A DNA stretch of 64,000 bases, taken from the NCBI GenBank assembly GCA_022827785.1, contig JAJEIM010000031.1:32549-96548 (forward strand), given 5' to 3'. Shown here piece by piece: positions 739 to 50,864 of the stretch (positions within the stretch are counted from its first letter, which is position 1; every line of letters starts with the position of its first letter). Source of the stretch: Acidimicrobiia bacterium (GTDB lineage: Bacteria > Actinomycetota > Acidimicrobiia > Spongiisociales > Spongiisociaceae). A program made the position numbers and the translations under genes. The notes beneath the pieces were generated by a model. The model saw nothing but the letters and a program-made list of their open reading frames with translations. It made no database searches and had not been told where the DNA came from.

Positions 739-2934
739 ATGAAGCCGACCAGGATATCGGGGAAGGGGGCCGGGCCGGGCATGCGTCGCAATACTGTCCG
801 GGTCACGCCCCTCATTGCTGCCGTGCTCGTGCTGTCCTTGCTCATTCCCGCACCACCTGTCGCAGCCGCCGAGCCGGAGGAGCGCCTGCAGCGGACCGCC
901 CAGACCGATGGCGCAGACGGAGCTCAGGCGCTACCTACCGGCCGGGTGACCTGCGAGGAGGCGTCGGCGCCCTTCGAGGTGCTGTGCGTCGTATACCGCT
1001 TGATAATCGTCAATTATGTAGATGTGGTCGACGTCGAGGAGCTAGCCTCGGCGGCGGCCCAACGGGTGAGAGGCGCTGACCTCGCCGAGCGGACCGACGG
1101 GGAACCACCGCCGTGTCCGGTGCCCTCTCCCGGATTCGAGGAGGTGTGCGAGGCGATCGACGAGATGCAAGACACCGCCGAGGCGGTCGAGGAGGCGGTC
1201 CGGGGGATGGCCGGGTCACTCGATCCCAACTCTCGCTACTTGACCGCCCGGCAATACAGCCGCTTCCGGACGCTCCTCGAAAACCGGGGGACCAGCGGCC
1301 TGGGTGTCGCGTTCAGCCTGGTGGAGAACGGTATGCCCTGCCTCACCGTGACCGCCACCTGCCGGCCGGTGATATCCGAGGTCTATGCAGGAAGCCCGGC
1401 GGAGGAGGCCGGCCTCATGGTGGGCGACGAGCTCATCGAATTGGGGGACAAGTTCCCGGCCGAACTCGGTTGCGAGGATGTGGCCCGCCTGGACCGGTTC
1501 AGGGCCGGCGAGGTGGTGCCGATCAAGGTCCGGCGTGACGCCGTCCTGACGGGAAGGATCAGGGCGGCGGCGCTGGCCATACCGGTGGCGAGGGGAATGG
1601 TCGTGGATGGCAACATCGGCTATCTCAGCCTTGACGTCTTCAGCACGGTGGCGGACGATGCGGTGGCGGAGGTGCTCGGTCAGCTGACGGATCCCCCTAT
1701 CAGCAGTCTCGTGCTGGACCTTCGCGGCAACCCTGGCGGGTACATCGACTCGGCGGTGGGCACGGCCGGCGCCTTCCTACCTGACGTGTCGGCGGTCGTG
1801 CATCTGGTGAGCAGGGAAACGGTGGAGACCGTCCGGGCCCGAGGCAGGGCGGTCTCCTCCGATCCCACCCTCCTGCCGATGGTGGTCGCGGTGGACGGCG
1901 GCAGCGCCTCGGCTTCGGAGATGGTGACCGGCGCCCTCAGCGACCAGGGTCGTGCCACGGTGGTCGGCCAGACAACCTTCGGAAAGAACACCGGCCAGTC
2001 GTCCTATCACGTCGAGCCCGGAGGCATGCTGGCCGGCGTACTCCAGATCACCACCCTCAGGTGGTTCACTCCCCTCTCCCGGAGCGTCACCGGCGGACTC
2101 AGGCCAGAGGTGACCATGGACCTGCCGTCGTGCCTGCTGCCGGCCGAGGTGGCGAGGCGCGCCGTCTCGGCGATCCGCCCGCGCATCGCAGACGTGAGCA
2201 TCACTTCGGAACCCTCGGACGGCGCGGCATACGTGGCCGGCGAGACGGTGATGGTTACCGTGACCTTCGACTCCCCGGTGGTCGTGTTCCGCAACGGTGG
2301 GAGTCCGACCATGAACATCCAGGTGGGCGACAATCGCCGCGTCGCTCTCTACGAGTCGGGCTCGGGCTCGCCGGAGCTGGTGTTCGGGTACACGGTGAGG
2401 AACAGGGATGCCGACCCGGGCGGGATCAGCATCCGCTCCGATTCGCTGCAGCCCGGCTGGGCGAAGATCGGGCTGGTGGCCGGCCTGGAAGCCATCCTGG
2501 GCCACGATGCCGTGGCCGACGATCCGCAACAGCGGGTGGCCGGCGGCCCGGCTCCGCAGACCGGCCCTGAGGTGTTCATCGATATCCGGGAAAGCACCCA
2601 CCGGACCAGCATCGAGCGGATTGTCGCCGCCGGGATCATGAACGGATGCGGCGTGGCGGAGGGCGGTGATCTGTTCTGTCCGGATGTGGCGGTGAGTAGG
2701 GCTGAGATGGCCGCCATTCTCAGCCGGGCTTTGGAGTTGCCGGCTGCGGAGGGGGATTTCTTTGTTGATGATGAGGGGTCTGTGTATGAGGATGCGATCA
2801 ATCGTCTTGCGGGGGCCGGTATCACGCATGGGTGTGATCCTGGTGGTGGTTTGTTCTGTCCGGATGTGGCGGTGAGTAGGGCTCAGATGGCCGCCTTCCT
2901 GGTGAGAGCCCTCGGGCTGGAGCCGCCTGCCTAA
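739..2934 (+). CDS. Secreted S41 family C-terminal processing peptidase with two C-terminal SLH-like repeats
   Basis: There is an N-terminal signal/TM segment (LIAAVLVLSLLIPAPPVAAA), the S41 motif DLRGNPGGYIDSAVGTAGAFL, and a PDZ-like region. Two C-terminal repeats read GCGxxxGGDLFCPDVAVSRAEMAAILSRAL, resembling S-layer-homology domains. The start could instead be the Met at 781. Confidence 0.8.
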   Translation: MKPTRISGKGAGPGMRRNTVRVTPLIAAVLVLSLLIPAPPVAAAEPEERLQRTAQTDGADGAQALPTGRVTCEEASAPFEVLCVVYRLIIVNYVDVVDVEELASAAAQRVRGADLAERTDGEPPPCPVPSPGFEEVCEAIDEMQDTAEAVEEAVRGMAGSLDPNSRYLTARQYSRFRTLLENRGTSGLGVAFSLVENGMPCLTVTATCRPVISEVYAGSPAEEAGLMVGDELIELGDKFPAELGCEDVARLDRFRAGEVVPIKVRRDAVLTGRIRAAALAIPVARGMVVDGNIGYLSLDVFSTVADDAVAEVLGQLTDPPISSLVLDLRGNPGGYIDSAVGTAGAFLPDVSAVVHLVSRETVETVRARGRAVSSDPTLLPMVVAVDGGSASASEMVTGALSDQGRATVVGQTTFGKNTGQSSYHVEPGGMLAGVLQITTLRWFTPLSRSVTGGLRPEVTMDLPSCLLPAEVARRAVSAIRPRIADVSITSEPSDGAAYVAGETVMVTVTFDSPVVVFRNGGSPTMNIQVGDNRRVALYESGSGSPELVFGYTVRNRDADPGGISIRSDSLQPGWAKIGLVAGLEAILGHDAVADDPQQRVAGGPAPQTGPEVFIDIRESTHRTSIERIVAAGIMNGCGVAEGGDLFCPDVAVSRAEMAAILSRALELPAAEGDFFVDDEGSVYEDAINRLAGAGITHGCDPGGGLFCPDVAVSRAQMAAFLVRALGLEPPA

Positions 2935-5152: not shown

Positions 5153-5727
5153 GCCTCCTGGTCGAGGCGTTCCGCTCCGGACTCCTACCCTGTTCCTGGT
5201 CCATCCTGCTGCTTGCCCTACTGCTCCTCGGCCTGCGGAAACAGGGCGAGCGAGGCGAGGTGCTGGGACTCTTCTATCTGGCGACCGTACTCCTGGCCTG
5301 GCTTCCGCTGGCAGGCGTCAACCTGATGCTCGACCACCGGCTGGGAGGGGCCGCGGTCCTGGCCGCCGGTCTGGCCCTGACCGCAGGACGGTTCCGGGCC
5401 GGGGTAGGCGGCGCCGCCCTGGTGGGCGCTTTCGCCGGCGCCACCTGGGTGCCATGCGTGGGTCCCGAGTTGGGTTCGGTCCTGACCAGAGGCCTGGCCG
5501 AGCCTTCCACCGCCGTTCTTCCGCTGGCCCTCTACCTGGCCGGGGTGATGGTTCCATCGGCCCTGATCTACCTGCTGGCGGCGAAGGATGCCGGCTTCCG
5601 GAGGCTCCTGGAACGCCCCCGGGTCAGGATCGGCTTCAAGGTGGCGGCGGCACTGCTGCCCGTCGCGGTGGCTACGGGCGTCCACGACCGGCTGGTGGGA
5701 GAGCTGGCCCGCCTCTCCAACCTGTAG
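5149..5727 (+). CDS. ccdA: Cytochrome c biogenesis / disulfide-reductant transporter CcdA (DsbD family)
   Basis: The GTG at 5149 overlaps the upstream stop (GTGA). CcdA has two Cys motifs: LPCSWSIL and TWVPCVGPELGS. The protein is polytopic. Confidence 0.75.
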   Translation: MSLLVEAFRSGLLPCSWSILLLALLLLGLRKQGERGEVLGLFYLATVLLAWLPLAGVNLMLDHRLGGAAVLAAGLALTAGRFRAGVGGAALVGAFAGATWVPCVGPELGSVLTRGLAEPSTAVLPLALYLAGVMVPSALIYLLAAKDAGFRRLLERPRVRIGFKVAAALLPVAVATGVHDRLVGELARLSNL

Positions 5728-5877
5728 CAGTGGACCGGAATCGGTCGTACACCGACGCTCCGGCCGCAACGAAGCGCTTCCGGGACTTCCACAAGCAATA
5801 ACTGCCTGAGCTACCCAATCCCCACGGATGGGCCAACCCAAAGGTAGGACCGCGGCCGTCTAGCATTCTTGTTTCTC

Positions 5878-7152
5878 ATGGGCATTTCTCCATCCGATAC
5901 TCCTGTGGCCGGCGCGATGCGGGGCACCCCGCATGGCGGGAACGCGCTGGGGGTCGTGGTCGGGGAGGTGGCGTTTCCCCCCGGGTTCGGGCTGCATACC
6001 GGCAACATCGGGATCAAGGACCGGACCGAGGACGTGATGATCCTCTCCGCCCCACCGGGAACGACGGCCGCCGGGGTCTTCACCAAGAGCCGTTTCTCGG
6101 GGCCGAGCATCACGCTGAGTCGAGCCCATGTCGCCGATGGTCGGGCCCGCGCGGTGGTGATCATCTCGAAGAACGCCAACGTGGCCACCGGAGCGGTGGG
6201 GGATGAGAACGCGGCGGAGGTGGCCGAGCTCACCGCCCGAGTGGTGGGTTGTGACACGCCCGAGGTGATCGTCGCCTCCACCGGCGTGATCGGCGTTCGC
6301 TATCCGATGGACCGGATCCGCGCCTACATGACCCGCCTCGGAACCACCGGTGACGATGCGTTCGATGAGCCCGGTTCGGCCACCACGGCGGCCACCGCCA
6401 TCATGACCACCGACACCCACGCCAAGGTGGCGACCGCCCGCGCCGGCCCGGCTCGGGTGGTGGGTATCGCCAAGGGGGTGGGGATGATCGAGCCCGACAT
6501 GGCGACGATGCTGGCTGTCATCACCACCGACGCGGCCGCCGAACCGGCCTCCCTCGATGCCATGTTCCGGCGGGTGGTGGACCGCACGTTCAACGCCGTG
6601 AGCATCGACACCGACACCTCCACCAGCGACATGGCGGTCGTGCTCGCCTCGGGCCGGGCCGGGCGCGTGGAGCGGACCGCGCTGGAGGACGCCCTGGGCG
6701 AGGTGTGCCTGGACCTGACCAGGCAGTTGGCGGCCGACGGTGAGGGCGCCGAGACTCTCATCGTGGTGACGGTGGAAGGCGCCGGGGACGATGCCCAGGC
6801 CAAGCGGGTGGCCAAGTCGATCGTCAACTCACCTCTGGTGAAGACGGCGGTCCACGGCCGTGATCCCAACTGGGGCCGGGTCGCGATGGCGGTGGGGAAG
6901 TGCTACGAGGATGACATCCTGGCGGATCGGATCACTATCCGCTTCGGGGGGACGGAGGTCTATCCGGCGCCGATCACGCCCGAGGTGCTGGAGGAGCTGG
7001 AGCGGTACCTGGCGTCTCCGGAAGTGCTCATCCATGTCGACCTGGGTGTGCCGGGGGACGGTCCGGGCTCCCAGGGGACGGGCGCCTTCACCGTGTACGG
7101 GTGCGACCTGACCGACGGTTACGTGCGCATCAACGCCGACTACACGACTTAG
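5878..7152 (+). CDS. argJ: Bifunctional ornithine acetyltransferase / N-acetylglutamate synthase ArgJ
   Basis: PPGFGLHTGNIGIK, the autoproteolytic site PDMATMLAVITTDA (cleaved at A|TML), and the C-terminus YVRINADYTT all fit ArgJ. An AT-rich patch just upstream looks like a promoter. The start could also be 5869 (TTG) or 5917. Confidence 0.8.
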   Translation: MGISPSDTPVAGAMRGTPHGGNALGVVVGEVAFPPGFGLHTGNIGIKDRTEDVMILSAPPGTTAAGVFTKSRFSGPSITLSRAHVADGRARAVVIISKNANVATGAVGDENAAEVAELTARVVGCDTPEVIVASTGVIGVRYPMDRIRAYMTRLGTTGDDAFDEPGSATTAATAIMTTDTHAKVATARAGPARVVGIAKGVGMIEPDMATMLAVITTDAAAEPASLDAMFRRVVDRTFNAVSIDTDTSTSDMAVVLASGRAGRVERTALEDALGEVCLDLTRQLAADGEGAETLIVVTVEGAGDDAQAKRVAKSIVNSPLVKTAVHGRDPNWGRVAMAVGKCYEDDILADRITIRFGGTEVYPAPITPEVLEELERYLASPEVLIHVDLGVPGDGPGSQGTGAFTVYGCDLTDGYVRINADYTT

Positions 7153-7184
7153 GAACGCGGCCGCGTCCCCGTCACTCCGCCTAG

Positions 7185-7676
7185 CTAGCTGTCCGCCTGG
7201 GCGGGTTCGGGGATCAGCAGCACCGGCAGGCTGGACCTGGCGGTAACGGTCATCGACACGCTGGTCCAGGACATCTCGTTGAACAGGCGTCGGGTGGCGC
7301 CCATCACGATGGCGTCGGCGCCCACCCGATCGGCGGTGTCGATGATGGCCTGCGCCACGTCCTCAGCCTCCACGAAGAGCGTCGCGGGCGCGACGTCTCG
7401 AAGCTTCAGCGCCGCCACCACCGGAGCCACGATCTTCGAGCCCCGCTCCTGTATGTACCGGTCGGCCTGCCGTGCGGCGCGGTCGGGGTCGCTCCGGCCC
7501 GCCGGAGCATCGAAGGGCCGCCAAGGGCCGTCCTCGAATTCATCGAGAAAATCGGCTGGAGCCTGGGTCACGTTCATGACGATGACCTTCCCCCGGGGAC
7601 CCGCCAGCAACTCCACGAAGTCGGCGACCGGCCCCGGCGGTAGCACCCCGGCCGTGGCGACCAGCACGTTCATCAA
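7185..7676 (-). CDS. Universal stress protein (UspA family)
   Basis: MMNVLVATAG...ADAIVMGATRRLFNEMSWTSVSMTVTARSSLPVLLIP has the USP fold and a G-rich ATP loop. Confidence 0.75.
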   Translation of the reverse strand: MMNVLVATAGVLPPGPVADFVELLAGPRGKVIVMNVTQAPADFLDEFEDGPWRPFDAPAGRSDPDRAARQADRYIQERGSKIVAPVVAALKLRDVAPATLFVEAEDVAQAIIDTADRVGADAIVMGATRRLFNEMSWTSVSMTVTARSSLPVLLIPEPAQADS

Positions 7677-7766
7677 GCTGAATCTAGTGGCAGATCACTA
7701 CCCAGGGCCTGCCGGATACGCCTGTCAGACGGCGTTTCGGCCTCTCCGCGGCTGTGCGCTCGGCAT

Positions 7767-8669
7767 TCAGGGTGGCGGAGCGTCGGCCAGACGGGTCATC
7801 CTGACGTCCACATCCAGGCCGGAGTTGGCGCCTCCTTCCACCACCCCGCGGGTCGGCGGGACATCCCGATAGTCCCGGCCGACCGCTGTTCGCACGTAGC
7901 GGTGGTCGACCAGCGTGCGGTTGGTGGGGTCGAACTCCACCCATCCCAGTTCGGGGAGCCGGCATTCGACCCAGGCATGGGTTGCGGTGCTGGCCGGCCC
8001 GTGCACCCCGTCCGGAGCGTCGTCCACATGTAGGTAGCCGGACACGTAGCGCGCGGGGACGCCCCATGAACGGGCGATCGCGATCATGACGTGGGCATAG
8101 TCCTGGCACACGCCCCTCCGGGTCGAAAGGATCTCGTCGATCGGCGAATCCACCGATGTCGAGCCCGACACGTAGTCGAAGTTGTCGTTCAAGGCTAGGG
8201 CGAGTCCCACCAGATCGGTCAGCGGATCGGACCCCGGCTCGATTCCTGTCTCGGCGACGAAGCCGGTGAGGGCCGGAGTGGGACCGGCGCCGGGACTCGG
8301 GTTAGTGAATTGCCAGGAGGCCAGGTCGGTGGCCCACGATCGCACCACTTCCCACGCTTCTGGCCCGAGGCGTTGCGGCAGTGCCGGCGAGGGGGACACC
8401 TCGACGGTGGAGACGGAGACCACCTCAAGGGTGTCGTGCGTCTCGTTCACGGTGAGGACGTGCCTGGTGTTGCCGAACGGGTCGGTCTCGGCGGTCAGCC
8501 GCCCCGTAGGGGAGGTGGTGATCGCGAACTCCAGTACCCGCTGGCGGTCGCCGTCGAGGGGCCGGAGGCAGAGCGACATGGCGCATCTCCGCACGGAAGA
8601 GATATAGCCGAATCTGGTGAGGTGCTCGATCCGGTAGCGTGTCGCACGAGCCGGACCCGCACTGCTCAC
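7767..8669 (-). CDS. Transglutaminase-like cysteine protease family protein with Bact_transglu_N domain
   Basis: RYRIEHLTRFGYISSVRRCAMSLCLRP matches the bacterial transglutaminase N-terminal domain. The core RRGVCQDYAHVMIAIARSWGVPARYVSGY...H...D gives the Cys-His-Asp triad context. Confidence 0.8.
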   Translation of the reverse strand: MSSAGPARATRYRIEHLTRFGYISSVRRCAMSLCLRPLDGDRQRVLEFAITTSPTGRLTAETDPFGNTRHVLTVNETHDTLEVVSVSTVEVSPSPALPQRLGPEAWEVVRSWATDLASWQFTNPSPGAGPTPALTGFVAETGIEPGSDPLTDLVGLALALNDNFDYVSGSTSVDSPIDEILSTRRGVCQDYAHVMIAIARSWGVPARYVSGYLHVDDAPDGVHGPASTATHAWVECRLPELGWVEFDPTNRTLVDHRYVRTAVGRDYRDVPPTRGVVEGGANSGLDVDVRMTRLADAPPP

Positions 8670-9652
8670 TGGTCGAACTCTCCGATGCGAGCCGACCGGG
8701 TTACCACCGGATAGTCGAAGTAGGTTTCGGTCACCAGGTCGTGGAGCCGGCGGCCGGCGATCCTGAACTCGGCGAACAGGCCTTCGGCGTCGGATGTCCT
8801 GGGCCAGACGAAGCGAAGCAGGTCCGACATGTGGTCCACCTGGGACCGGGCCTGGGAGGTGGCGGTCCGGTCGGGACCGTCCCCGATCGCCGACAACTCC
8901 CGATGCAGTCCGAGAACCGACATGCTCAGCGAGTCGGGGAGGTGCGGGTCGGATACGAGCAGGTCCAGCACCCGGCCGGCGTCGATCGCCAGGCCGTCGC
9001 CCTGCTGGTACGCCTCGAAGGCATGAAACAGGCGGAGCAGGCTGGTCCAGTAGGCGTCCGCGGGCACAGCGAACAGCCGCACCGCGGCGATCTGGGCGCC
9101 CAGCACCGAGGCCACCAACTCGGCTCGTTCCAGGAGGCTACCCATGCGGATGAAGTGCCAGCCCTGATCCCGATACATGGTGGAGGAGCTGACGCCCCGG
9201 AACGTATCGATGTCCGCCTCGACGTTCGCGTAGAACTGCTCCGGCGTCGACGCCCAGATGTCCTGGATCTCCATGTCGCGGAGGCGGAGATACGGCCGGT
9301 TGAGGGATGCCCACATCTCCGCGGAGATGCGGTGGCGCACCTGCCGGGCGTTCTCCCGAGCCAGGGAGAAACAGTTCCGGATGGAGTCGGGCATCGTGGC
9401 CTCAAAGGTGAGATCATCGGCGAGGGTGAAAGAGTCGGCCAGCGTGTAGTACTCGTCTCCTTCCGTGTCTAGGGGCCCCGTATGCGGTCGCCTTCCCAGC
9501 GTGCCGTAGATCCGGTGCCATCCGAAGTAGATGTCACGAACCGGGCTGTCCACCAGCGACTCCGTCTGCTGGCGCATCAGCCGGGCGAGATGGCTGGCCC
9601 TCTCGAGGTACCGGCCGATCCAGTAGAGGCTCTCGGCGCTACGTGCCAGCAT
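8666..9652 (-). CDS. Alpha-E domain protein (DUF403)
   Basis: MLARSAESLYWIGRYLERASHLARLMRQQ... is the typical alpha-E start. It overlaps the downstream transglutaminase gene by 4 bp. Confidence 0.8.
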   Translation of the reverse strand: MLARSAESLYWIGRYLERASHLARLMRQQTESLVDSPVRDIYFGWHRIYGTLGRRPHTGPLDTEGDEYYTLADSFTLADDLTFEATMPDSIRNCFSLARENARQVRHRISAEMWASLNRPYLRLRDMEIQDIWASTPEQFYANVEADIDTFRGVSSSTMYRDQGWHFIRMGSLLERAELVASVLGAQIAAVRLFAVPADAYWTSLLRLFHAFEAYQQGDGLAIDAGRVLDLLVSDPHLPDSLSMSVLGLHRELSAIGDGPDRTATSQARSQVDHMSDLLRFVWPRTSDAEGLFAEFRIAGRRLHDLVTETYFDYPVVTRSARIGEFDQ

Positions 9653-9736
9653 CTCTAGACCACTACCGCGTCCGTCTGGGGAGTTGCTGTGCGGGATGAC
9701 CGCCGGGGCGTACCGAGTCGTCTCGCAGGCGGATCA

Positions 9737-11173
9737 CTACCCCTCCTCCAGTACCCAGAAGTCCTTGGCGCCTCCCCCCTGGCTGGAGTTAACGACCAGG
9801 CTCCCTCGGCGCATGGCGATCCGGCAGAACGCCCCCGGCACGATGCGGGTCTCGCCCCCCGACAGAATGAAGGGCCGCAGGTCCACGTGGCGGGGCTCGA
9901 GGCGGCCGTCGATCAGGCAGGGCGCCCGGGACAGGGCCAGGGTGGGTTGGGCAACGAAGTCGGCCGGATCCTGGCGCAGGAGGGATGCGAACCGGTTCCG
10001 TTCCTCGGCGCTCGCATGGGGACCGACCAGCATCCCGTAGCCGCCGGACTCGCCCACTCGCTTGACCACGAGATGCTCCAGGTTGTCCAGGGTGTACTCC
10101 AGATCCTCGGGGCGGCGGCAGAGGTAAGTTTCCACGTTAGGGATGAGCGGTTCCTCCGCCAGGTAGTAGCGGATCATGTCGGGGACGAAGGCGTAGACGC
10201 TCTTGTCGTCGGCTACGCCCGTGCCCGGGGCGTTGACCACCGATACGTTGCTCAGCCGGGCGGCATGCAACAGGCCGGGGGCGCCGAGCAGAGAGTCCGG
10301 ACGGAACACGAGGGGGTCGAGGAAGTCGTCGTCGATCCGGCGGTAGATGACGTCCACCCGCCGCAGACCCGCCGTGGTGCGCATGTACACGTAACCGTCC
10401 TCGACCACCAGGTCCCGGCCCTCCACCAGTTCGGCGCCGATCTGGCGCGCCAGGAACATGTGCTCGTAGAAGGCCGAGTTGTATACCCCGGGGGTGAGGA
10501 GGACGACCGTCGGGTCGTCGCAACCCTCGGGCGCCATCTCGTGGAGGGTCCGGCGGAGGACCAGCCCGTAGTCCTCCACGGCTCCCACCCGGGAACGCCG
10601 GTAGAGGAGGCGCATGGCCGACTTGGTGGCCTTGCGGATGGCGATCATGTAGGAGACGCCTGAGGGAACTCGCAGGTTGTCCTCGAGAACCCGGAAGCCG
10701 TCCACGGTCCGGACCAGGTCGGTGCCGCAGATGGCCACCCAGATCCCCCTGGGGGCCTCGAATCCCTGCATCTCGATGCGATACTGGGGGCAGCCGAAGA
10801 CCATGTCCGGCGGGATTACCCCATCGGAGACGATCCGGGCCGAGTCGTATATGTCCCGTAGAAAGGCGTTGAGAGCGGCCAGGCGCTGCTCGAGTCCCCT
10901 CGCCAGGCCTCGCCATTCCGCACCCGCCATCACCCGCGGGATGCAGTCGATCGGGATGATGCGCTCGTCGGCCTCGTCGTCGCCGTACACGGTGAAGGTG
11001 ATGCCTTCGTGGGTGAAAGACCGGGTGACCCATTCGCCGATGGCGTTCATGTCGTCGTCGGAAGCCTCCAGGAGGGTCTCGTAGAGGTCCCGACCGTGGG
11101 AACGGGGGGTTCCGTCGCTCCGGAACAACTCGTCGTAGACGCCCGCGTCGAGGTCGTAGCCGTCGAACTTCAT
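9737..11173 (-). CDS. Circularly permuted type-2 ATP-grasp protein (DUF404/DUF407)
   Basis: Starting at the internal Met (MKFDGYDLDAGVYDELF...), at 11173 by codon arithmetic, the protein matches the circularly permuted ATP-grasp family that always partners with alpha-E and transglutaminase. The ORF track's extended N-terminus (to 11362) is low-complexity. Confidence 0.75.
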   Translation of the reverse strand: MKFDGYDLDAGVYDELFRSDGTPRSHGRDLYETLLEASDDDMNAIGEWVTRSFTHEGITFTVYGDDEADERIIPIDCIPRVMAGAEWRGLARGLEQRLAALNAFLRDIYDSARIVSDGVIPPDMVFGCPQYRIEMQGFEAPRGIWVAICGTDLVRTVDGFRVLEDNLRVPSGVSYMIAIRKATKSAMRLLYRRSRVGAVEDYGLVLRRTLHEMAPEGCDDPTVVLLTPGVYNSAFYEHMFLARQIGAELVEGRDLVVEDGYVYMRTTAGLRRVDVIYRRIDDDFLDPLVFRPDSLLGAPGLLHAARLSNVSVVNAPGTGVADDKSVYAFVPDMIRYYLAEEPLIPNVETYLCRRPEDLEYTLDNLEHLVVKRVGESGGYGMLVGPHASAEERNRFASLLRQDPADFVAQPTLALSRAPCLIDGRLEPRHVDLRPFILSGGETRIVPGAFCRIAMRRGSLVVNSSQGGGAKDFWVLEEG

Positions 11174-11334
11174 GCCGCTGATCCCGTCACCCGCACCGGA
11201 GCGACCACCCTTCTCCAAAGGTTTGTTCGCTGCCCGCCGACCACCCTCTCGTCCTGTTCGACCAACCGGTGCCGGAAGCATACCGACACCGGACCGAGCC
11301 GGGCGCCCGGGTGTAACGTGGGCTCCGAGGCCGG

Positions 11335-11847
11335 ATGAGGAGGGACCCGATGGACGCGGCATTGATCAACCGGGTCACTTGGATGATCCCCAATGCTCTG
11401 GCTCTGGTGGGCTCCCGGGCCGGCGACCGATGGAACGGGATGACCACCTCCTGGATCACCCAGCTGTCGATGGAGCCGGTGATGATCGGGATCGGGGTTG
11501 ATAACAAGGCGGTTACCCATCGGCTGATCTCGGACGGAGGTTCTTTCAGCGTCAACCTCTGGTCGCCGGACGATCGGAGGGTGTTCGTGAAATTCTCGAA
11601 GCCCGCCGCCAAGGAGGGCATGTCCCTCAACGGCCGGGCCATCCGGGAAGGTGTAACGGGAGTTCCGATCTTCGAGGATGCCATCGCCTGGATGGAGTGC
11701 GAGGTGAGGCGAGCCATCGACTTCGGGACGCACACGTTGTTCGCCGGCGAACTGGTGTCCGCGGGCGTGATGGACCAACCGGGGCGGGCGGCCTGGATGG
11801 GTGACACCCGTATGAAGTACGGCGGCGTGAAGCGGGGCGGCCACTGA
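11335..11847 (+). CDS. Flavin reductase-like (NAD(P)H:FMN oxidoreductase, HpaC family)
   Basis: LALVGSRAGDRWNGMTTSWITQLSMEPVMIGIGV...SFSVNLWSPDD...LFAGELVS. The gene diverges from the ATP-grasp operon. Confidence 0.7.
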   Translation: MRRDPMDAALINRVTWMIPNALALVGSRAGDRWNGMTTSWITQLSMEPVMIGIGVDNKAVTHRLISDGGSFSVNLWSPDDRRVFVKFSKPAAKEGMSLNGRAIREGVTGVPIFEDAIAWMECEVRRAIDFGTHTLFAGELVSAGVMDQPGRAAWMGDTRMKYGGVKRGGH

Positions 11848-11875
11848 TGAGCCGGCCCGGGCCGGGCGGCTGAGC

Positions 11876-12634
11876 ATGGAGGCGCGCCTCGACGGTCGGG
11901 TGGCGGTGATCACCGGCGCCTCGCGGGGGATCGGCGAGGCTACCGCGGCCGCCGCGCTGGCGGCCGGAGCTCGCGGCGTGGTGATCACCAGCCGCAAGCC
12001 GGAGAACCTCGCCGGGGCGGCCGACCGGCTGGGCGAGCCGGACCGGGTGGCGCCGGTGGCGGCCCGCTCGGACACCGAGGATGGCGCTGCGGAGGCGATC
12101 GGTACCGCCATCGATCGCTTCGGGTCCTGTGACGTACTGGTCAACAACGCCGCGACCAACCCTGCCTACGGGCCGCTCACGGATGTAGACCTGGGCGCCG
12201 TGAAGCGGACCTGGGAGATCAATCTGCTGGGCCCGCTCCTCTACGCACGGGCTGCCTGGGCCGCCGGGATGCGCGATCGCGGCGGGGTGATCTGCAACAT
12301 CGCCTCCGTGGGCGGTCGGTTGCCGGGTCGGGGCATGGGGGCCTACAACATTTCCAAGGCCGGGCTGATCTACATGACCCGGCATCTGGCCTACGAGATG
12401 GCGCCCACCGTCCGCGTGGTCGGGGTGGCGCCCGGCGTGGTCAGGACCCGCCTGTCGAGGGTCCTATGGGAGGACGAGGAACGAGGTGCGGCGATGCACC
12501 CGCTGGGACGCATCGGCGAGCCCGTCGACGTGGCATCGGCGGTGGTGTTCCTGTGCTCCGACCAGGCGTCCTGGGTGACCGGCGTGACCCTCGACGTGGA
12601 CGGGGGGATCGCCCACTCCTCACCCTACGTGTAG
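11876..12634 (+). CDS. SDR family oxidoreductase
   Basis: VAVITGASRGIGEA carries TGxxxGxG, and NISKAGL carries YxxxK. Confidence 0.8.
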   Translation: MEARLDGRVAVITGASRGIGEATAAAALAAGARGVVITSRKPENLAGAADRLGEPDRVAPVAARSDTEDGAAEAIGTAIDRFGSCDVLVNNAATNPAYGPLTDVDLGAVKRTWEINLLGPLLYARAAWAAGMRDRGGVICNIASVGGRLPGRGMGAYNISKAGLIYMTRHLAYEMAPTVRVVGVAPGVVRTRLSRVLWEDEERGAAMHPLGRIGEPVDVASAVVFLCSDQASWVTGVTLDVDGGIAHSSPYV

Positions 12635-21137: not shown

Positions 21138-22145
21138 CTACGACCCGAACGGAGGCTCGGCCGGTCCCTTGCGCACGCAGGCCGCCCACACCGTCTCGTA
21201 GTGGTCGATGTCGTAGGGATCGATGTGGTGGAGCACCATGGCCTCCCACGCCGTGCGGAGCGGGTCCTCCCACTCCCTGTACACCATCAGGCCCACCGGG
21301 AGGCGGTCGAGAACCGTCCGCAGGCTGATCGGGGTCTCCACCCTGGTGCCGGGGTCGGTCGAGAGGAACGACCGGTTGATCTCGGTGGCCAGCCTGCTGA
21401 TGTGGCGCACGTACACGTCGCGCATCGACGGGTAGCGGCGGTCCAGCATGGCCTCGATCTCGGTGATGTCGGGAAAGTCCTTCTCCCAGATCACCCACCG
21501 GTCGGCGAAGGCCTTGTTGAGGGTCTGGGTGCCGGCGTAGTCGCGCAGGTCGGTCGGGTTCATCGTCCCGAACAGGCGGACATCCTCCCGGAGGGGCACC
21601 GTCTCGCCGGTCGGCAGGTCCAGCGCCGCGTAACGGTCGAGCAGGCCGTGCAGGGCGAAGAGGGTCTCGGCGCCGGCGGCGTTCAGCTCGGACAGGTTCA
21701 CGAGGGCGGTTCCTCGCAGCGCCCTCGTGATATCACCGTCCTCCCAGCGGCTCTCCGTGCCGCCGAGGCCGTCTCCGTAGAGTTTCACCGAACCGATGAG
21801 GGTGATGTCGCGCACCTCGCCGGTCAGCGGTATCCGGTAGTAGGGCAGGCGCAGCAGGGCGGCGAACTGCTCGATGTCGTGGTCCTTGCCGGTCCCCATG
21901 TGGCCCCGCACCGCCAGGTGGAGCGGCACCGTCCCCTCGGGCTGCTCCCGCCGGATCTTCTCCACCTGCGCGAAGCGGTAGAGCATGCCTACGTCGACGT
22001 AGTGGGGGTCCGGTTCGGGAATCTTGTTGATGCGCTGCTCGTAGTCCCGCACGCCGCTCGTGGGAACCGCGACCGTGTCCAAGGTGATGGGCCGGCCCGT
22101 TCCGGTCGGGTCGGTGAACGTGACCTTGGTGGGTTGTTCAGGCAC
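21138..22145 (-). CDS. CobS-like AAA+ ATPase
   Basis: LHLAVRGHMGTGKDHDIEQFAALLRLPYYRIPLTGEVRDITLIGS...DRWVIW aligns closely with aerobic cobaltochelatase CobS (YHGTGKSTHIEQVAARLNWPCVRVNL...DRWSIV). It overlaps the upstream VWA gene by 8 nt. Confidence 0.65.
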   Translation of the reverse strand: MPEQPTKVTFTDPTGTGRPITLDTVAVPTSGVRDYEQRINKIPEPDPHYVDVGMLYRFAQVEKIRREQPEGTVPLHLAVRGHMGTGKDHDIEQFAALLRLPYYRIPLTGEVRDITLIGSVKLYGDGLGGTESRWEDGDITRALRGTALVNLSELNAAGAETLFALHGLLDRYAALDLPTGETVPLREDVRLFGTMNPTDLRDYAGTQTLNKAFADRWVIWEKDFPDITEIEAMLDRRYPSMRDVYVRHISRLATEINRSFLSTDPGTRVETPISLRTVLDRLPVGLMVYREWEDPLRTAWEAMVLHHIDPYDIDHYETVWAACVRKGPAEPPFGS

Positions 22146-24282
22146 TGCGTAGCTCCGGCATGAGAGGGCTGTTCCCGGTCTGCTGGCGGCCGGCCCGGAT
22201 CCACCAGGTGTCCTCCCCGTCCAGGGCCAGGCCTCGGCGGAGCGCCATCCTCACCCCGGCCACCATTGAGTTGGCCAGCTCGTCCGGACGCGAGATCACC
22301 TGGTGGTGACGGTAGGCGGAGACCACTGTATCGTCCCCCACGCCGATACCCAGAACCGTGGTGCCCCGGCCGTCCACCTCCTCGACCGACCGGGCCAGAG
22401 CCTCCACCGACCCCCTGGTCATCCCGTCGGCCAGCACCACCATCACCCGAACCCGGGCGCCGTGGTTGGCCAGGCGCTCGGCAGCGTAGGTGACGTTCAA
22501 CTCGTCCACGTTGGCCCCCTTCTCGAACAGCGACACGGGCGGGGTCGAGCGCGGGTTGCGCCGCGCCTCGATTCCCGCCTCACCCGTGCGGGCTGCCGTC
22601 CAGAACAAGCCGGCGAGGAGGTCGTCGGACCGCCGCCAGGGTTCGTGGAAGGCCGACAGGACGTAGTGATTGACGGTGGAGGTGAGCCGGTCGGCCGCCG
22701 CTCCGTGGCTCTGGCGCAACTCGCTGATCGCGGCGGACCGCCGGCGGGAGTACGTCCATTCGGTGTCGTCCACCTGGGCGGCGAAGGCCCGGTTGAAGAG
22801 GGCCACCTCGAAGTCCACCCGGAGTTCGTTGCACATGGCCGCCAGGGTCCAGGCGCCGAGCATGGCGGCCGCCAGACCCCAGGGGCGGCGGTCGCGGGGC
22901 GCCGACAGGCGCCTCGGCTGGAGCATGGAGGCCGATCCGTCGACCAGGACGCTGACCGCGTAGGACCGCCGGGTCGAGACGGACCGGCGCTCGAACATCC
23001 GCTGGTACAGGCCGCCTCCCAAAAACAGCGCGGCGTGGGGTGACAGGTCGCCGGCATCGAAGCCCGATCTCAACCCGCGGCGCTGGTTGGCGATGAACAG
23101 GGGATGCAGCTCGCCCCCCACCCGCCGCTGATCGACGTTCCACTCCCGGGCTGCATCCACGAGGGCGGTCCTCCCGCGGTGGGAGAAGCTGCGGAAGGAG
23201 TCGGGGACGCCCGCCACGGCCAGCTTGCCGCTCTGGCCGTTGGGGAGGTAGATGACCGGGGCCTGGCTGACCATCAGCAACTGGTCGGTTCCCTCGCCGG
23301 AGGTCCGGTCCATCCGGGCGGCTCTCAGTTCGAGGCCGGTGGGATCCTCGGCACCCCGCCGGATCTCGTTGTAATGATCGGCGTCCTGGACGGCGGGGGA
23401 GAAAAGCCTGACCCGGTCGAGACCGTCGGTCATGGCGTCCTTCTCGGCCTGCTCCCGTTCCCGGCGAGCCTGGGGCTGGTCGTCCGGCCGGGCCTCCTGT
23501 ACCAGGCTGTGCGCCCTCGCGATGGCGAGGAGTTGCATCGCGAGGTCGCCGGTGTCCCACGGTCGGGCGGCGACCGCTGCCTCGTCGAGAACGGCGCGGG
23601 AGTCCGCCCACGCGGCCCCGGACCGGGAGTCGAGGAGCCGTTCCAGACTGTGGGCGGGCACGTAGCCGCCCACGGACATGAAGCAGGCGATGGTGAACCG
23701 GATGAGCGGGCCGCGGCCCGCCAGCGCTCCCCGGAGGGAGGACCGGTACAGGTCTTCGAGAACGGAGCGGGCGCCCGGGTAGTCGGCCAGGCCCTGGCGT
23801 TCCTGGCGGGCGTCCTCGATCGCGAAGAAGAGGGCCTCGGCCGGGGGACCGCCGGTCCGGTCGAGAGCCTCCAGCAGGGTGAAGTCCTCCCCGTCATTCG
23901 GGCCGGGCTGGTCGTCCAGGAGCCAGTGGTCGGGTATGGGACGGCGCTCGTCGAAGTCGGAGGAGACCAGGTGGATCACCTCGTGGAGCGCCGAGGCGAG
24001 TGCGGTCTCCTCGGCGGTCACGGGAGCTCTGCGCCCGTAGGCCGCCTGGAAGAGTCCGGGGTCGATGACCACCTCGTCCCCGGACGCCCGGCTGGAGGCG
24101 CCGAGCATCACCCGCAGTTCCTCCCTACCGGTCAGGGTGCGGGCGACACGGGTGACGGCGCCCGCCACCCGCTGGTACCGGCCGACCACCGACTCGATGG
24201 CGCGTTCTTCCGGGGGAAGGATCTCGGCCAGCAGCGAGCGATCTCGAGGTGTCACAAAGCTCCATTGTCGCAGGTGTCGCAC
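22138..24282 (-). CDS. VWA domain protein, CobT-like, with N-terminal HExxH motif
   Basis: The MIDAS-type VWA motif SVLVDGSASM sits in the C-terminal third. The N-terminal region has ALHEVIHLVSSDFDE, an HExxH...D pattern. At 714 aa it is directly upstream of, and overlapping, the CobS-like ATPase. Confidence 0.6.
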   Translation of the reverse strand: MRHLRQWSFVTPRDRSLLAEILPPEERAIESVVGRYQRVAGAVTRVARTLTGREELRVMLGASSRASGDEVVIDPGLFQAAYGRRAPVTAEETALASALHEVIHLVSSDFDERRPIPDHWLLDDQPGPNDGEDFTLLEALDRTGGPPAEALFFAIEDARQERQGLADYPGARSVLEDLYRSSLRGALAGRGPLIRFTIACFMSVGGYVPAHSLERLLDSRSGAAWADSRAVLDEAAVAARPWDTGDLAMQLLAIARAHSLVQEARPDDQPQARREREQAEKDAMTDGLDRVRLFSPAVQDADHYNEIRRGAEDPTGLELRAARMDRTSGEGTDQLLMVSQAPVIYLPNGQSGKLAVAGVPDSFRSFSHRGRTALVDAAREWNVDQRRVGGELHPLFIANQRRGLRSGFDAGDLSPHAALFLGGGLYQRMFERRSVSTRRSYAVSVLVDGSASMLQPRRLSAPRDRRPWGLAAAMLGAWTLAAMCNELRVDFEVALFNRAFAAQVDDTEWTYSRRRSAAISELRQSHGAAADRLTSTVNHYVLSAFHEPWRRSDDLLAGLFWTAARTGEAGIEARRNPRSTPPVSLFEKGANVDELNVTYAAERLANHGARVRVMVVLADGMTRGSVEALARSVEEVDGRGTTVLGIGVGDDTVVSAYRHHQVISRPDELANSMVAGVRMALRRGLALDGEDTWWIRAGRQQTGNSPLMPELRSA

Positions 24283-25268: not shown

Positions 25269-26519
25269 ATGCAGGTTGAGATCTCCCGGACGTCCACGGG
25301 GCTGACGGTCGTGACCGAACCGGTGCCGGGGGTCCGGTCGGTGGCGGTCGGGTGCTGGATAGACACCGGTAGCAGGGATGAGCGGCCCGGCGAGGCGGGC
25401 GCCGCCCACTTCCTCGAGCACCTCCTCTTCAAGGGGACCGAGGAGTTGTCGGCCCGCTACATCTCCGAGACGTTCGACGCCATCGGCGCCCAGAGCAATG
25501 CCTTCACCTCCAAGGAGTACACCTGCTTCTGGGCCCGCATGCTCGACAGCGAGCTGGATACCGGCATGGATCTGCTGGCGGAGATGCTCCAGCGTCCCGC
25601 GTTCCGGCCGGATGAGATCGACTCCGAACGCAACGTGGTGATCGAAGAGATAAACATGAACGAGGATGACCCTTCGGATGTCGCGGGGGAGACCTTCATG
25701 CGGACTCTCTTCGAGGGACATCCGCTGGGCCTGCCGGTGCTGGGGACCCGGGAGTCGATCGGTGGCATGACCCCGGAGGATCTGAGAGGCTACTGGCGGA
25801 GGCGCTACGGCGCGGGAACAGCGCTGGTGGCCGTGGCAGGCAATGTGGAACACGAGAAGGTGGTGGAGATGGTGGAGTGCCGGTTCGACGCCTGGGAGGC
25901 GGAGGACGGCGCCCATGACCTGGCCGCACCCCGGGTCGGCCCCGCCGCGAGCGTGGTGGAGCGGGACACGGAGCAGGTCCACCTGGTCTACGGGGGCGAG
26001 TCGATCCACCGCACCGACGGGGGCAGGATCGCCGACGGCGTGATGCATCACATCCTGGGCGGCGGGATGTCATCCCGCCTGTTCCAGAAGATCCGCGAGG
26101 AACGCGGCCTGGCCTACGCGGTCCACAGCTTCACGATGCGCTTCGCCGAGACGGGCGGGTGGGGCGTGTACGTGGGCACCACGCCGGCCAATTCCCACAC
26201 GGTCATGGAGATCCTCGCCGAGGAGATCGGGCGGATGGTCTCGGAGGGAGTGACGGAAGCCGAACTGGACAGGGCCAAGGGACACATGCGGGGCGCCGTG
26301 GCCCTCTCGATGGAGGACACCAACGCCCGGATGATCCGCCTGGGGCGCAACCAGATGTTCGGACTGCCCCATCTCTCCCTCGACGAGCGCCTGGCCCGGG
26401 TCGAGGCCGTCACCAGGGCGGACATCGCGGGCATGGCCGCCCGCAATCTGACCGGTCCCCGGGTGGTCGGCGCCGTGGGTCCGCTGCCCGCCGGCGAGTT
26501 CGAGCGATACCTGTCGTGA
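25269..26519 (+). CDS. pepR: M16 family zinc peptidase (PepR-like, insulinase family)
   Basis: The inverted zinc motif HFLEHLLFKGT (HxxEH), starting from MQVEISRTSTGLTVVTE. The Met at 25269 comes from codon arithmetic. Confidence 0.8.
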   Translation: MQVEISRTSTGLTVVTEPVPGVRSVAVGCWIDTGSRDERPGEAGAAHFLEHLLFKGTEELSARYISETFDAIGAQSNAFTSKEYTCFWARMLDSELDTGMDLLAEMLQRPAFRPDEIDSERNVVIEEINMNEDDPSDVAGETFMRTLFEGHPLGLPVLGTRESIGGMTPEDLRGYWRRRYGAGTALVAVAGNVEHEKVVEMVECRFDAWEAEDGAHDLAAPRVGPAASVVERDTEQVHLVYGGESIHRTDGGRIADGVMHHILGGGMSSRLFQKIREERGLAYAVHSFTMRFAETGGWGVYVGTTPANSHTVMEILAEEIGRMVSEGVTEAELDRAKGHMRGAVALSMEDTNARMIRLGRNQMFGLPHLSLDERLARVEAVTRADIAGMAARNLTGPRVVGAVGPLPAGEFERYLS

Positions 26520-27286
26520 TCTCGGTAGGGATCTCGGGCGCCCCCGGACGGATGGGGCTCCTCTCGCAGGCGGCGATCGAGCCGCTCGACGATCTGGTCA
26601 TAGGCGGCCTGTACGCACCCGGCCATGACGGAGAGCCGCTCGCCGGGGGTACCTGCTCGGGCGATCCCGAGGCCTTGCGCCGGTGCGATGTGATCCTGGA
26701 GCTCACCCACCCGGAGGCGGCGCCGTCCAACGTGAGCCGCTGGAAGTCCTTCGGCGCCCATGTGGTGATCGGAACTTCGGGGTACGACTCCTCCCGCATC
26801 GCCAGGCTCCGGGACGAGTGGGCGGGGAGCGGCCGGCGGTGCCTGGTGGTCCCCAACTTCTCCCTGGGCGCGGTGCTGATGATGCGGTTCTCGGAGATGG
26901 CGGCGCCGTTCTTCGCGGCGGCGGAGATCATCGAGATGCATCACGACCGCAAGCGCGACGCACCCTCCGGAACCGCTCTCAACACCGCCGCCCGGATGGG
27001 ACGGATCCGCCGCGAGGCGGGCATTCGCCCGACCGATCGGGGTCGGGAGTTGGAAGCCGGCGCTCTGGGCGCCGAGGTCGAGGGTGTTCCCGTCCATTCG
27101 GTCCGCTCGGCGGGCTTGCTGGCCCACCAGGAGGTGATCCTGGGTGGGGTGGGCGAGTACCTGACCATCCGCCATGACACCACAGACCTCGCTTCCTTCG
27201 CCGCCGGAATCGTCCTGGCACTGCGGTCGGTGGCCTCCCTGGAGGAGCCGGTTACGGTGGGCCTCGACGACTTGCTGGGTCTCTGA
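26516..27286 (+). CDS. dapB: 4-hydroxy-tetrahydrodipicolinate reductase DapB
   Basis: The GTG start overlaps the pepR stop (GTGA). VISVGISGAPGRMG, and EIIEMHHDRKRDAPSGTA is the DapB signature. Confidence 0.85.
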   Translation: MISVGISGAPGRMGLLSQAAIEPLDDLVIGGLYAPGHDGEPLAGGTCSGDPEALRRCDVILELTHPEAAPSNVSRWKSFGAHVVIGTSGYDSSRIARLRDEWAGSGRRCLVVPNFSLGAVLMMRFSEMAAPFFAAAEIIEMHHDRKRDAPSGTALNTAARMGRIRREAGIRPTDRGRELEAGALGAEVEGVPVHSVRSAGLLAHQEVILGGVGEYLTIRHDTTDLASFAAGIVLALRSVASLEEPVTVGLDDLLGL

Positions 27287-50222: not shown

Positions 50223-50864
50223 ATGATCGACCGGGACCTGGCGGTCCGGCTGGTGGTTGCGGCCAGCCGGAGGGTGGACGACCACCGGGAGGAGTTGTCC
50301 CGGCTCGACTCGGTGGCCGGTGACGGTGACCACGGGGTCAACATGGCGGCCGCCCTGGCGGAAGCGGCCCGCCGCGCCGGGGAAGACGACCACGGTAGTG
50401 CTGCCGAGGTGATGCGAGCTACCGGATCCGCCTTTCACGAGACCGTGGGCGGTGCCGCCGGCGCGCTGTTCGGCGCCTTCTTCGGAGCCCTCGCGGGTGG
50501 CCTATCCCGGTCATCGGCGCCCGACGAGAGTGGGCTCGTAGCCGGGATGGAGAAGGGTCTGGCCCGGGTGGCGCGGATCGGCAAGGCCGGACCGGGAGAC
50601 AAGACGATGATCGATGCCCTGGCCCCCGCCGTGAGCGAGGCCAGGGAGGCGATGGAGGGGGATGGCGACCTGGCGTCCGTATTGGCCGCGGCGGCCCGAG
50701 CCGCGCGAGAAGGCGCCCGGGCGACCGCGGGCATGCGGCCCTCTGCGGGGCGGGCCCGGTTCGCCCCCGATCACAGCATGGGGACCGAGGATCCCGGCGC
50801 CAATACGGTTGCCCTGATCCTCGAGTCCTGGGACGAACAGTTGAGCAGCGAGGTGACGGCATGA
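50223..50864 (+). CDS. dhaL: Dihydroxyacetone kinase subunit DhaL
   Basis: DSVAGDGDHGVNM is the DhaL ADP-binding motif. Confidence 0.85.
   Translation: MIDRDLAVRLVVAASRRVDDHREELSRLDSVAGDGDHGVNMAAALAEAARRAGEDDHGSAAEVMRATGSAFHETVGGAAGALFGAFFGALAGGLSRSSAPDESGLVAGMEKGLARVARIGKAGPGDKTMIDALAPAVSEAREAMEGDGDLASVLAAAARAAREGARATAGMRPSAGRARFAPDHSMGTEDPGANTVALILESWDEQLSSEVTA

Follow-up and report, generated by a model that had tools for sequence, protein, structure and literature searches.

The window, by which we mean the whole 64,000-nucleotide stretch of DNA analyzed here, carries an intact, chromosomal, and ordinary copy of a widespread bacterial three-gene set, without the proteasome-like NTN hydrolase Anbu. 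The set encodes an ATP-grasp protein, an Alpha-E protein, and a transglutaminase-like protein, and the cassette at window positions 7767–11173 is confirmed as real, with three full-length proteins (Table 1). Comparison of related genomes ties it to nitrogen or ammonium handling, and we favor, with moderate confidence, a model in which an ATP-dependent carboxylate-amine ligase, an obligate helical partner, and a thiol amidase/transamidase would be used together under nitrogen limitation. The DNA comes from an uncultured Acidimicrobiia bacterium that lives in association with a sponge and whose closest relative is Candidatus Spongiisocius.

Table 1. Features of the cassette and its immediate flanks, in window coordinates
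Feature	Positions	Strand	Size	Domains and remarks
Universal stress protein (USP) gene	7185..7676	-		PF00582 at 2.3e-11; 90 bp downstream of the cassette
Transglutaminase-like cysteine enzyme gene	7767..8669	-	300 aa	PF08379 and PF01841
Alpha-E gene (all-helical protein)	8666..9652	-	328 aa	PF04168
Non-coding spacer, ATP-grasp to Alpha-E	9653..9736	-	84 bp	
ATP-grasp gene (circularly permuted)	9737..11173	-	478 aa	PF14403 and PF04174; predicted ATP-dependent carboxylate-amine ligase
Divergent intergenic region	11174..11334		161 bp	Presumed promoters of the cassette and the flavin reductase gene
Flavin reductase gene, divergent	11335..11847	+		PF01613 at 1.2e-32

All three cassette genes are encoded on the minus strand in Pfam-supported frames, and third-position GC of 0.82–0.89 in these frames provides a coding signal. 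The family assignments of the sequence-only reading were borne out by Pfam matches well over the curated thresholds for each protein, as were the divergent flavin reductase and downstream USP genes that it placed at the flanks. Its description of three overlapping genes was correct only in part. The Alpha-E and transglutaminase-like genes do overlap, by 4 bp (GTGA) at the Alpha-E stop codon, but 84 bp lie between the ATP-grasp stop codon (9737–9739) and the Alpha-E ATG (9652). The start of the ATP-grasp gene at the ATG at 11173 agrees with an N terminus in which M1, F3, and Y6 are invariant across 19 orthologs. For the transglutaminase-like gene, no start other than the GTG at 8669 is available upstream of Bact_transglu_N, a conserved domain that runs from residue 12 and takes in the invariant H16; the public call of this gene, at 270 amino acids, removes part of the domain. 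No paralogs of the cassette were found in the window.

The ATP-grasp protein matches two circularly permuted ATP-grasp families along their entire profiles, CP_ATPgrasp_2 (PF14403, 1.3e-152, positions 1–374 of 374) and PF04174 (5.2e-135, positions 1–332 of 332), and nothing else in Pfam at E ≤ 0.01. A profile search of the PDB returned a single match, 3n6x, which aligns over the full length (E = 1.3e-155, query residues 13–476 against chain residues 10–473). NCBIfam gave no matches, and an exact-sequence look-up found no record of this protein. Conservation reaches at least 97% at 181 of the 478 residues (71 orthologs). Among the best 80 of at least 590 matches, identity to the window protein is 61%–92% across phyla, and the corresponding ranges are 39%–84% for Alpha-E and 39%–82% for the transglutaminase-like protein. 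Sequence comparison thus shows the ATP-grasp protein to be under very strong purifying selection.

Alpha-E matches PF04168 from end to end (5.2e-64, profile positions 1–294 of 294) and is made up of two related halves, each bearing one ER motif (E17-R18 and E175-R176). R18 and E175 are invariant, E17 and R176 are conserved at 90% or above, and hhalign aligns the N-terminal half to the C-terminal half at E = 2.4e-4 with the ER motifs in register. An AlphaFold2 model (pLDDT 85) contains 14 helices. A sequence search of the PDB found no relative of Alpha-E, comparison of the fold returned generic helical bundles only, and an exact look-up recovered only short metagenome contigs.

The transglutaminase-like protein combines a Bact_transglu_N domain (PF08379, 1.6e-19) with a Transglut_core domain (PF01841, 6.3e-24). 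Its residues Cys188, His231, and Asp247, invariant in 30 orthologs, form an intact Cys-His-Asp triad, predicted to be catalytic. Over the catalytic core, it matches TgpA of Pseudomonas aeruginosa (PDB 6g49), with its transglutaminase/papain-like core around Cys, His, and Asp, and a putative transglutaminase-like cysteine protease of Cytophaga hutchinsonii (PDB 3isr) with the same core. Both alignments are limited to the core of about 85–110 residues, however; the window's Bact_transglu_N domain lies outside them, and the genomic context also differs.

The regions around the genes contain few recognizable signals. The 84-bp spacer is partly common to the closest relative (L003), where it is longer, and is absent from two others (L006 and L007), in which the ATP-grasp and Alpha-E genes abut; it is a lineage-specific insertion, in which we saw no conserved small open reading frame and no obvious element. 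A scan of positions 7000–12000 revealed no terminator-like site, no sigma-70 consensus match, and no consensus promoter or regulator site, and a by-eye search of the 161-bp upstream region for an actinobacterial GlnR-type box found nothing convincing. In an alignment of this region with its relatives, L003 alone shares sequence with it, in two blocks. The USP gene is possibly co-transcribed with the cassette. Among the best 80 of at least 590 matches, only Acidimicrobiia relatives have such a gene beside the cassette, on the downstream side in L003 and L006 and on the upstream side in L007 and L008, and the association is specific to this lineage. Other Acidimicrobiia loci showed no conserved partners beyond USP, flavin reductase, a short-chain dehydrogenase, and Lhr, these in the closest genomes, and in L004 and L005 the cassette has unrelated neighbors. 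In the window, the genes nearby have a redox or stress flavor: USP, flavin reductase, an AhpC/TSA-like protein, a mycothiol-dependent isomerase-like protein, and KatG.

This redox/stress leaning of the neighbors could indicate that the cassette serves redox or stress protection by making a low-molecular-weight thiol or polyamine conjugate that resembles glutathione or glutathionylspermidine, and the homolog 3n6x was deposited as a “putative glutathionylspermidine synthase.” That name is the deposit label of a structural-genomics project, not a tested activity, and no match to a glutathionylspermidine synthase or glutathione synthetase family was obtained (Pfam at E ≤ 0.01, NCBIfam). The redox neighbors are retained in the closest Acidimicrobiia relatives alone and vary elsewhere, a distribution consistent with common descent rather than a functional tie. 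Rv2411c and Rv2567 of Mycobacterium tuberculosis are, we assume, members of the window's ATP-grasp family. E. coli lysates expressing either mycobacterial protein made no GABA-trehalose, a stress metabolite, which also argues against such a role, and both proteins are still uncharacterized (bioRxiv 10.64898/2026.04.15.718621). We therefore regard conjugate synthesis as quite improbable.

The arrangement of the three genes was compared across the best 80 of at least 590 matches, a set that spans about 10 phyla, is drawn mostly from sponge and marine MAGs, and includes many phylogenetically non-independent loci. In 79 of these 80, the ATP-grasp gene lies directly upstream of the Alpha-E gene or has only an Amt gene in between. 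The full triad, in the order ATP-grasp, Alpha-E, transglutaminase-like, is present in 38 of the 80, again from about 10 phyla. Recurrence of this order in related loci places the triad beyond chance and upholds the earlier description of it as conserved. In 42 of the same best 80, the transglutaminase-like gene is absent beside the pair and is therefore dispensable in cis.

A presumably comparable Anbu-less actinobacterial set, with the same family order and assumed orthology, is M. tuberculosis Rv2411c-Rv2410c-Rv2409c, and we take a second, partly fused set to lie around Rv2566-Rv2569c; these belong to the Actinomycetes, whereas the window set belongs to the Acidimicrobiia. The same three families also occur, in the same order and on one strand, in the Anbu operon known from Proteobacteria and Cyanobacteria, for example in Yersinia bercovieri, Pseudomonas aeruginosa, and P. 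putida (PP_2685–2688). The fourth gene of that operon, encoding Anbu, is absent from the window, where the USP gene comes next. The survey for NTN hydrolase or peptidase partners that the sequence-only reading had suggested was negative, with no Proteasome/Anbu-type domain in the ∼47 open reading frames of the window. Likewise, none of the 38 related loci with a transglutaminase-like gene (among the best 80 of at least 590 matches) carries Anbu or another NTN hydrolase downstream of it, and no conserved gene was found at that position in related loci.

The statement that the biochemical role of the cassette is not established agrees with the literature. The function of the Anbu operon has been described as unknown (PMC5666114, PMC6376114), our full-text searches found no reaction or function assigned to the cassette, and for none of its members is a reaction, substrate, or complex known from experiment. 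The ATP-grasp protein of a distant family member, from an Anbu operon, releases orthophosphate from ATP (PMC6376114). In pull-downs with Anbu as bait, none of the three other Y. bercovieri operon proteins was specifically recovered, an experiment that did not directly test for an ATP-grasp/Alpha-E complex (PMC6376114).

These observations bear on a role in pupylation-like protein tagging, in which the ATP-grasp enzyme would ligate an amino acid or peptide onto target side chains, Alpha-E would possibly serve as adaptor or target, and the transglutaminase-like enzyme would process or remove the tag. Tagging is what comparative genomics first suggested for the cassette (Iyer et al., 2009, as summarized in PMC5666114 and PMC6376114). 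The joining of a proteasome-like Anbu to the cassette in other clades is consistent with it, and an ATP-grasp protein this highly conserved would suit a conserved macromolecular substrate. However, no conserved tag or precursor open reading frame of 25–69 amino acids was found in the operon or within 1.5 kb of it in related loci; the conserved small frames in this range are all out-of-frame shadows of the large genes. A tag of fewer than 25 amino acids, or one with its gene elsewhere, would escape this search. Anbu is absent from the window and from the 38 related loci with a transglutaminase-like gene (best 80 of at least 590 matches), and experiments with Anbu itself detected neither interaction with the other operon proteins nor peptidase activity (PMC6376114). 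Considered together, these points leave tagging as a possible but unlikely function.

The same search for small frames (25–69 amino acids, operon ± 1.5 kb) argues against a specialized peptide natural product, such as a RiPP or some other small peptide built by a ligase, by yielding no precursor. There are precedents for such a pathway: ATP-grasp ligases of other families make macrocyclic RiPPs and dipeptides, and cysteine protease-like enzymes can serve as leader peptidases. Against it, the locus has no set of transporter, immunity, or tailoring genes, PADLOC defense models matched none of four proteins (E ≤ 0.01), and the conservation of the ATP-grasp protein is far above that usual for natural-product enzymes. 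The family is also very large: when public sequences are grouped at 50% identity, Alpha-E alone accounts for 3612 clusters (E ≤ 1e-3). We consider a natural-product pathway highly improbable.

Related loci suggest a link with ammonium. In 23 of the 80, from three phyla, a gene for an Amt ammonium transporter (PF00909, 2.1e-93) lies inside the operon or immediately next to it. This frequency may not generalize, since the 80 loci are the top-scoring part of at least 590 matches and come mainly from sponge and marine MAGs. Amt occurs in at least three arrangements, lying between the ATP-grasp and Alpha-E genes in 17 of the 23, and these operon-linked Amt genes are without their usual glnK partner. 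Genes for partner-switching proteins and sensor kinases often accompany the embedded Amt. The possibility that Amt and the transglutaminase-like gene are complementary was rejected, as there is no clean pattern (both in 9 loci, Amt alone in 14, and the transglutaminase-like gene alone in 29). In the window itself, a domain search and tblastn with E. coli GlnB turned up neither Amt nor PII nor any other nitrogen gene close to the cassette.

Published transcriptome data, all from Proteobacteria, show the cassette induced when nitrogen is limiting: the Burkholderia cenocepacia cassette is NtrC/sigma-54 dependent, with I35_5080-83 down 6.0- to 9.4-fold in an ntrC mutant (PMC5491218), and Pseudomonas putida PP_2685 and PP_2688 are induced on nitrate versus ammonium (PMC8050072). 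In marine metagenomes, the cassette domains co-vary with urea-metabolism domains (PMC3597751). The embedded Amt, the lack of a tag gene, and the Anbu-less clade together narrow the hypotheses toward nitrogen metabolism.

In the nitrogen-limitation model that we favor, the ATP-grasp enzyme would activate a carboxylate as an acyl-phosphate and then join it to an amine or ammonia. Alpha-E would be its obligate helical partner, acting as a substrate-binding or regulatory subunit, and the transglutaminase-like thiol enzyme would hydrolyze or transfer the resulting amide or γ-glutamyl-type bond. The cassette may then help the cell to scavenge, store, or turn over nitrogen under nitrogen limitation.

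A more specific and speculative proposal, to which we give a rather low probability, is that the ATP-grasp/Alpha-E pair forms the core of an unrecognized ammonium-linked pathway, of which the window copy would be a stand-alone version. The pair would amidate a carboxylate with ammonia delivered by Amt, providing a second route of assimilation or nitrogen storage with glutamine-synthetase-like chemistry, and the transglutaminase-like enzyme would free the nitrogen again. Alternatively, the pair might sense or regulate Amt.

The cassette is among the larger conserved bacterial gene sets without an assigned reaction. The window copy itself adds little, being a standard intact example from an uncultured sponge symbiont. 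The by-product of the comparison is more useful, in that it points to ammonium and to glutamate, glutamine, and their derivatives as candidate substrates for this family.

Three adjacent minus-strand genes encode a circularly permuted ATP-grasp protein, an Alpha-E protein and a transglutaminase-like protein (see table). A Pfam search matches every domain named in the sequence-only reading and identifies all three ORFs as full-length members of their families; that reading's finding of a triad at 7767–11173 is real and its interpretation correct. The frames are coding, because third-position GC is 0.82–0.89 (genome GC ∼68%). The genes had been described as overlapping, which is true of Alpha-E and the transglutaminase-like gene (4 bp), but the ATP-grasp and Alpha-E genes lie 84 bp apart (9653–9736). 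This spacer is ∼180 bp in the closest relative among the best 80 related loci (L003:9820–10000) and is missing from the other relatives compared, L006 and L007, in which the genes abut. The ATP-grasp start (ATG, 11173) opens an N terminus that is invariant in 19 orthologues. For the transglutaminase-like protein, GTG 8669 is the sole candidate start 5′ of the conserved N-terminal domain, the first 11 codons containing no other. The public gene call of 270 aa, starting 30 codons later (window 8580–8669; related locus L001:1471–2283), drops part of the Bact_transglu_N domain and is therefore probably too short, GTG 8669 probably being the better start.

Cassette genes, neighbours and other window features
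Feature	Window position	Strand	Details
Circularly permuted ATP-grasp	9737–11173	−	478 aa; PF14403 1.3e-152 (profile 1–374 of 374); PF04174 5.2e-135
Alpha-E	8666–9652	−	328 aa; PF04168 5.2e-64 (profile 1–294 of 294)
Transglutaminase-like	7767–8669	−	300 aa; PF08379 Bact_transglu_N 1.6e-19; PF01841 Transglut_core 6.3e-24
Flavin reductase	11335–11847		Divergent; PF01613 1.2e-32
Universal stress protein (USP)	7185–7676		Downstream; PF00582 2.3e-11
ArgJ	5869–7152	+	Ornithine acetyltransferase family; self-processing Thr enzyme
SLH-domain protein	739–2934	+	
SLH-domain protein	54890–55774	+	
AAA_5 ATPase gene, then 714-aa ORF	21138–24282	−	ATPase MoxR/dynein-type; ORF without Pfam match
ORF	5218–5841	−	No Pfam match at thresholds used
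ORF	26114–27175	−	No Pfam match at thresholds used
ORF	50861–52300	+	No Pfam match at thresholds used
ORF	58032–58715	−	No Pfam match at thresholds used

At the sequence level, conservation of the ATP-grasp protein is unusually high, with 181 of 478 positions at least 97% identical across 71 orthologues and 61–92% identity to the window protein in Chloroflexota, Acidobacteriota, Latescibacterota, Proteobacteria and others among the best 80 loci. A profile search of the PDB returned one match, the solved full-length homologue 3n6x (1.3e-155). The same family presumably includes Rv2411c and Rv2567 of Mycobacterium tuberculosis. Alpha-E is 39–84% identical to its relatives at the best 80 loci and keeps many invariant charged and aromatic residues. 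Its AlphaFold2 model comprises 14 helices (pLDDT 85), and hhalign (E = 2.4e-4) matches its N- and C-terminal halves along a G-x-x-x-E-R-A helix, which fits a tandem duplication with an ER motif in each half. The catalytic residues of the transglutaminase-like protein, Cys188, His231 and Asp247, are intact and invariant in 30 orthologues; PDB 3isr and TgpA (PDB 6g49) can be aligned with it over the catalytic core.

A pattern scan using one genome per species yielded at least 590 Alpha-E relatives, the best 80 of which were examined with 10-kb flanks by tblastn with the window proteins and by all-against-all ORF clustering. In this top-scoring subset, rich in sponge and marine MAGs, many of them related, so that counts are not of independent events, the ATP-grasp/Alpha-E pairing is constant, ATP-grasp lying upstream in 79 of 80 loci; a transglutaminase-like gene directly follows Alpha-E in 38. 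Ammonium transport is linked to the cassette: an Amt gene (PF00909, 2.1e-93) lies on or next to the operon in 23 of these 80 loci, from Chloroflexota, Latescibacterota and Acidobacteriota. It is inserted between ATP-grasp and Alpha-E in 17, as in locus L020 (7106–10969), where ATP-grasp (7106–8536) is followed by Amt (8593–9999), ending 1 nt before the Alpha-E start (10001). Elsewhere it is directly 3′ of Alpha-E (four loci: L058, L060, L065 and L071), upstream (one) or convergent (two), and these several distinct arrangements are a stronger argument than counts across the 80 loci. None of the 23 has the glnK/PII gene that usually adjoins Amt. At least one gene of a signalling set (STAS protein, anti-sigma-type kinase, response regulator–SpoIIE phosphatase fusion, Peripla_BP_6 binding protein, HAMP histidine kinase) occurs within ∼7 kb of Alpha-E in 34 of the best 80 loci, in five groups and several arrangements (e.g., L019:4300–8316 and L018:11040–12720; downstream of Alpha-E in L069 and L079).

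Published work connects the cassette to nitrogen-limitation regulons. A sigma-54 promoter has been predicted at the Bradyrhizobium cassette. That of Burkholderia cenocepacia is NtrC- and sigma-54-dependent (PMC5491218), that of Pseudomonas putida is induced on nitrate versus ammonium (PMC8050072), and in marine metagenomes the cassette domains co-vary with urea-metabolism domains (PMC3597751). Phosphate release from ATP has been shown for the ATP-grasp protein of Yersinia (PMC6376114). Expressed in E. coli, Rv2411c and Rv2567 made no GABA-trehalose and were assigned no activity (bioRxiv 10.64898/2026.04.15.718621). As the sequence-only reading held, the biochemical role is not established; the literature searched yielded no functional assignment, newer ones included.

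We lean, by a modest margin of belief, toward a package in which the ATP-grasp enzyme would form an acyl-phosphate and then ligate an amine or ammonia, Alpha-E would be its obligate helical partner, the transglutaminase-like thiol enzyme would cut or transfer the amide, and the cassette would serve nitrogen scavenging, storage or turnover. The four-gene operon that adds the proteasome-like hydrolase Anbu, its function being unknown, has been regarded as a putative system for peptide synthesis or tagging (PMC5666114, PMC6376114). In experiments, peptidase activity of Anbu could not be detected, and no other protein of the operon was pulled down specifically when Anbu was the bait (PMC6376114). 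The window cassette is the Anbu-less form, and protein tagging is unlikely, the lack of both Anbu and a tag gene counting against it: among the best 80 loci, no gene is conserved 3′ of the transglutaminase-like gene, Anbu is missing from all 38 that carry this gene, and no small ORF of 25–69 aa is conserved outside the large genes. In the 64-kb window, no gene for a proteasome-like protein or an NTN hydrolase, no Amt gene and no paralogue of any cassette gene was found, nor did a tblastn search with E. coli GlnB reveal a PII gene. A glutathionylspermidine-like thiol or polyamine conjugate is less probable again, its sole supports being the deposit label of 3n6x and neighbours that are not conserved. 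A peptide natural product seems very improbable. PADLOC matched no defence system to the cassette.

The window is ordinary chromosome. Near the cassette are genes for an S41 peptidase with SLH domains, HpcH aldolase, an AhpC/TSA-like protein, ArgJ, a short-chain dehydrogenase, Lhr helicase, BtpA and a mycothiol-type isomerase-like protein; farther away are DapA, RNase J, FtsK, 2-oxoacid dehydrogenase subunits, a sulfatase and KatG. The closest genome among the best 80, a sponge-associated Candidatus Spongiisocius MAG (Acidimicrobiia; Alpha-E 84%, ATP-grasp 92% identity), is completely syntenic from the short-chain dehydrogenase through the S41 peptidase. The flavin reductase and USP are located as first described. 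Among these loci they recur, as do the short-chain dehydrogenase and Lhr, in no genomes other than the nearest Acidimicrobiia; USP lies 3′ of the cassette in L003 and L006 and 5′ of it in L007 and L008. In L004 (an unclassified MAG) and L005 (Acidimicrobiia), also close relatives, the genes around the cassette are unrelated to these. Inherited synteny therefore seems to account for the redox and stress genes beside the cassette, perhaps with the exception of USP. The stand-alone argJ, convergent to the USP gene and outside any arg operon, has kept its place beside the cassette in just two of the 80, the nearest genomes L003 and L006. Of the window's two SLH-domain proteins, one is an S41 peptidase that also has a PDZ domain; the protein at 739–2934 has a C-terminal SLH region that recurs at ∼55076–55633. 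The AAA_5 ATPase and 714-aa ORF may form a two-gene system, and some of the four sizeable Pfam-less ORFs may be spurious, the sequence being high-GC. Among the matches listed, Alpha-E's nearest relatives outside Acidimicrobiia are mostly MAGs of sponge-associated lineages (Dehalococcoidia, Latescibacterota, Poriferihabitaceae), for which sampling bias or an exchange of genes in sponge microbiomes could be responsible.

The window holds a further example of a known, biochemically unsolved cassette, unsurprising to a specialist, and its copy makes the question no easier to test because the host is uncultured. The Amt gene embedded in the operon of related genomes offers a new, if modest, lead that merits a systematic census.
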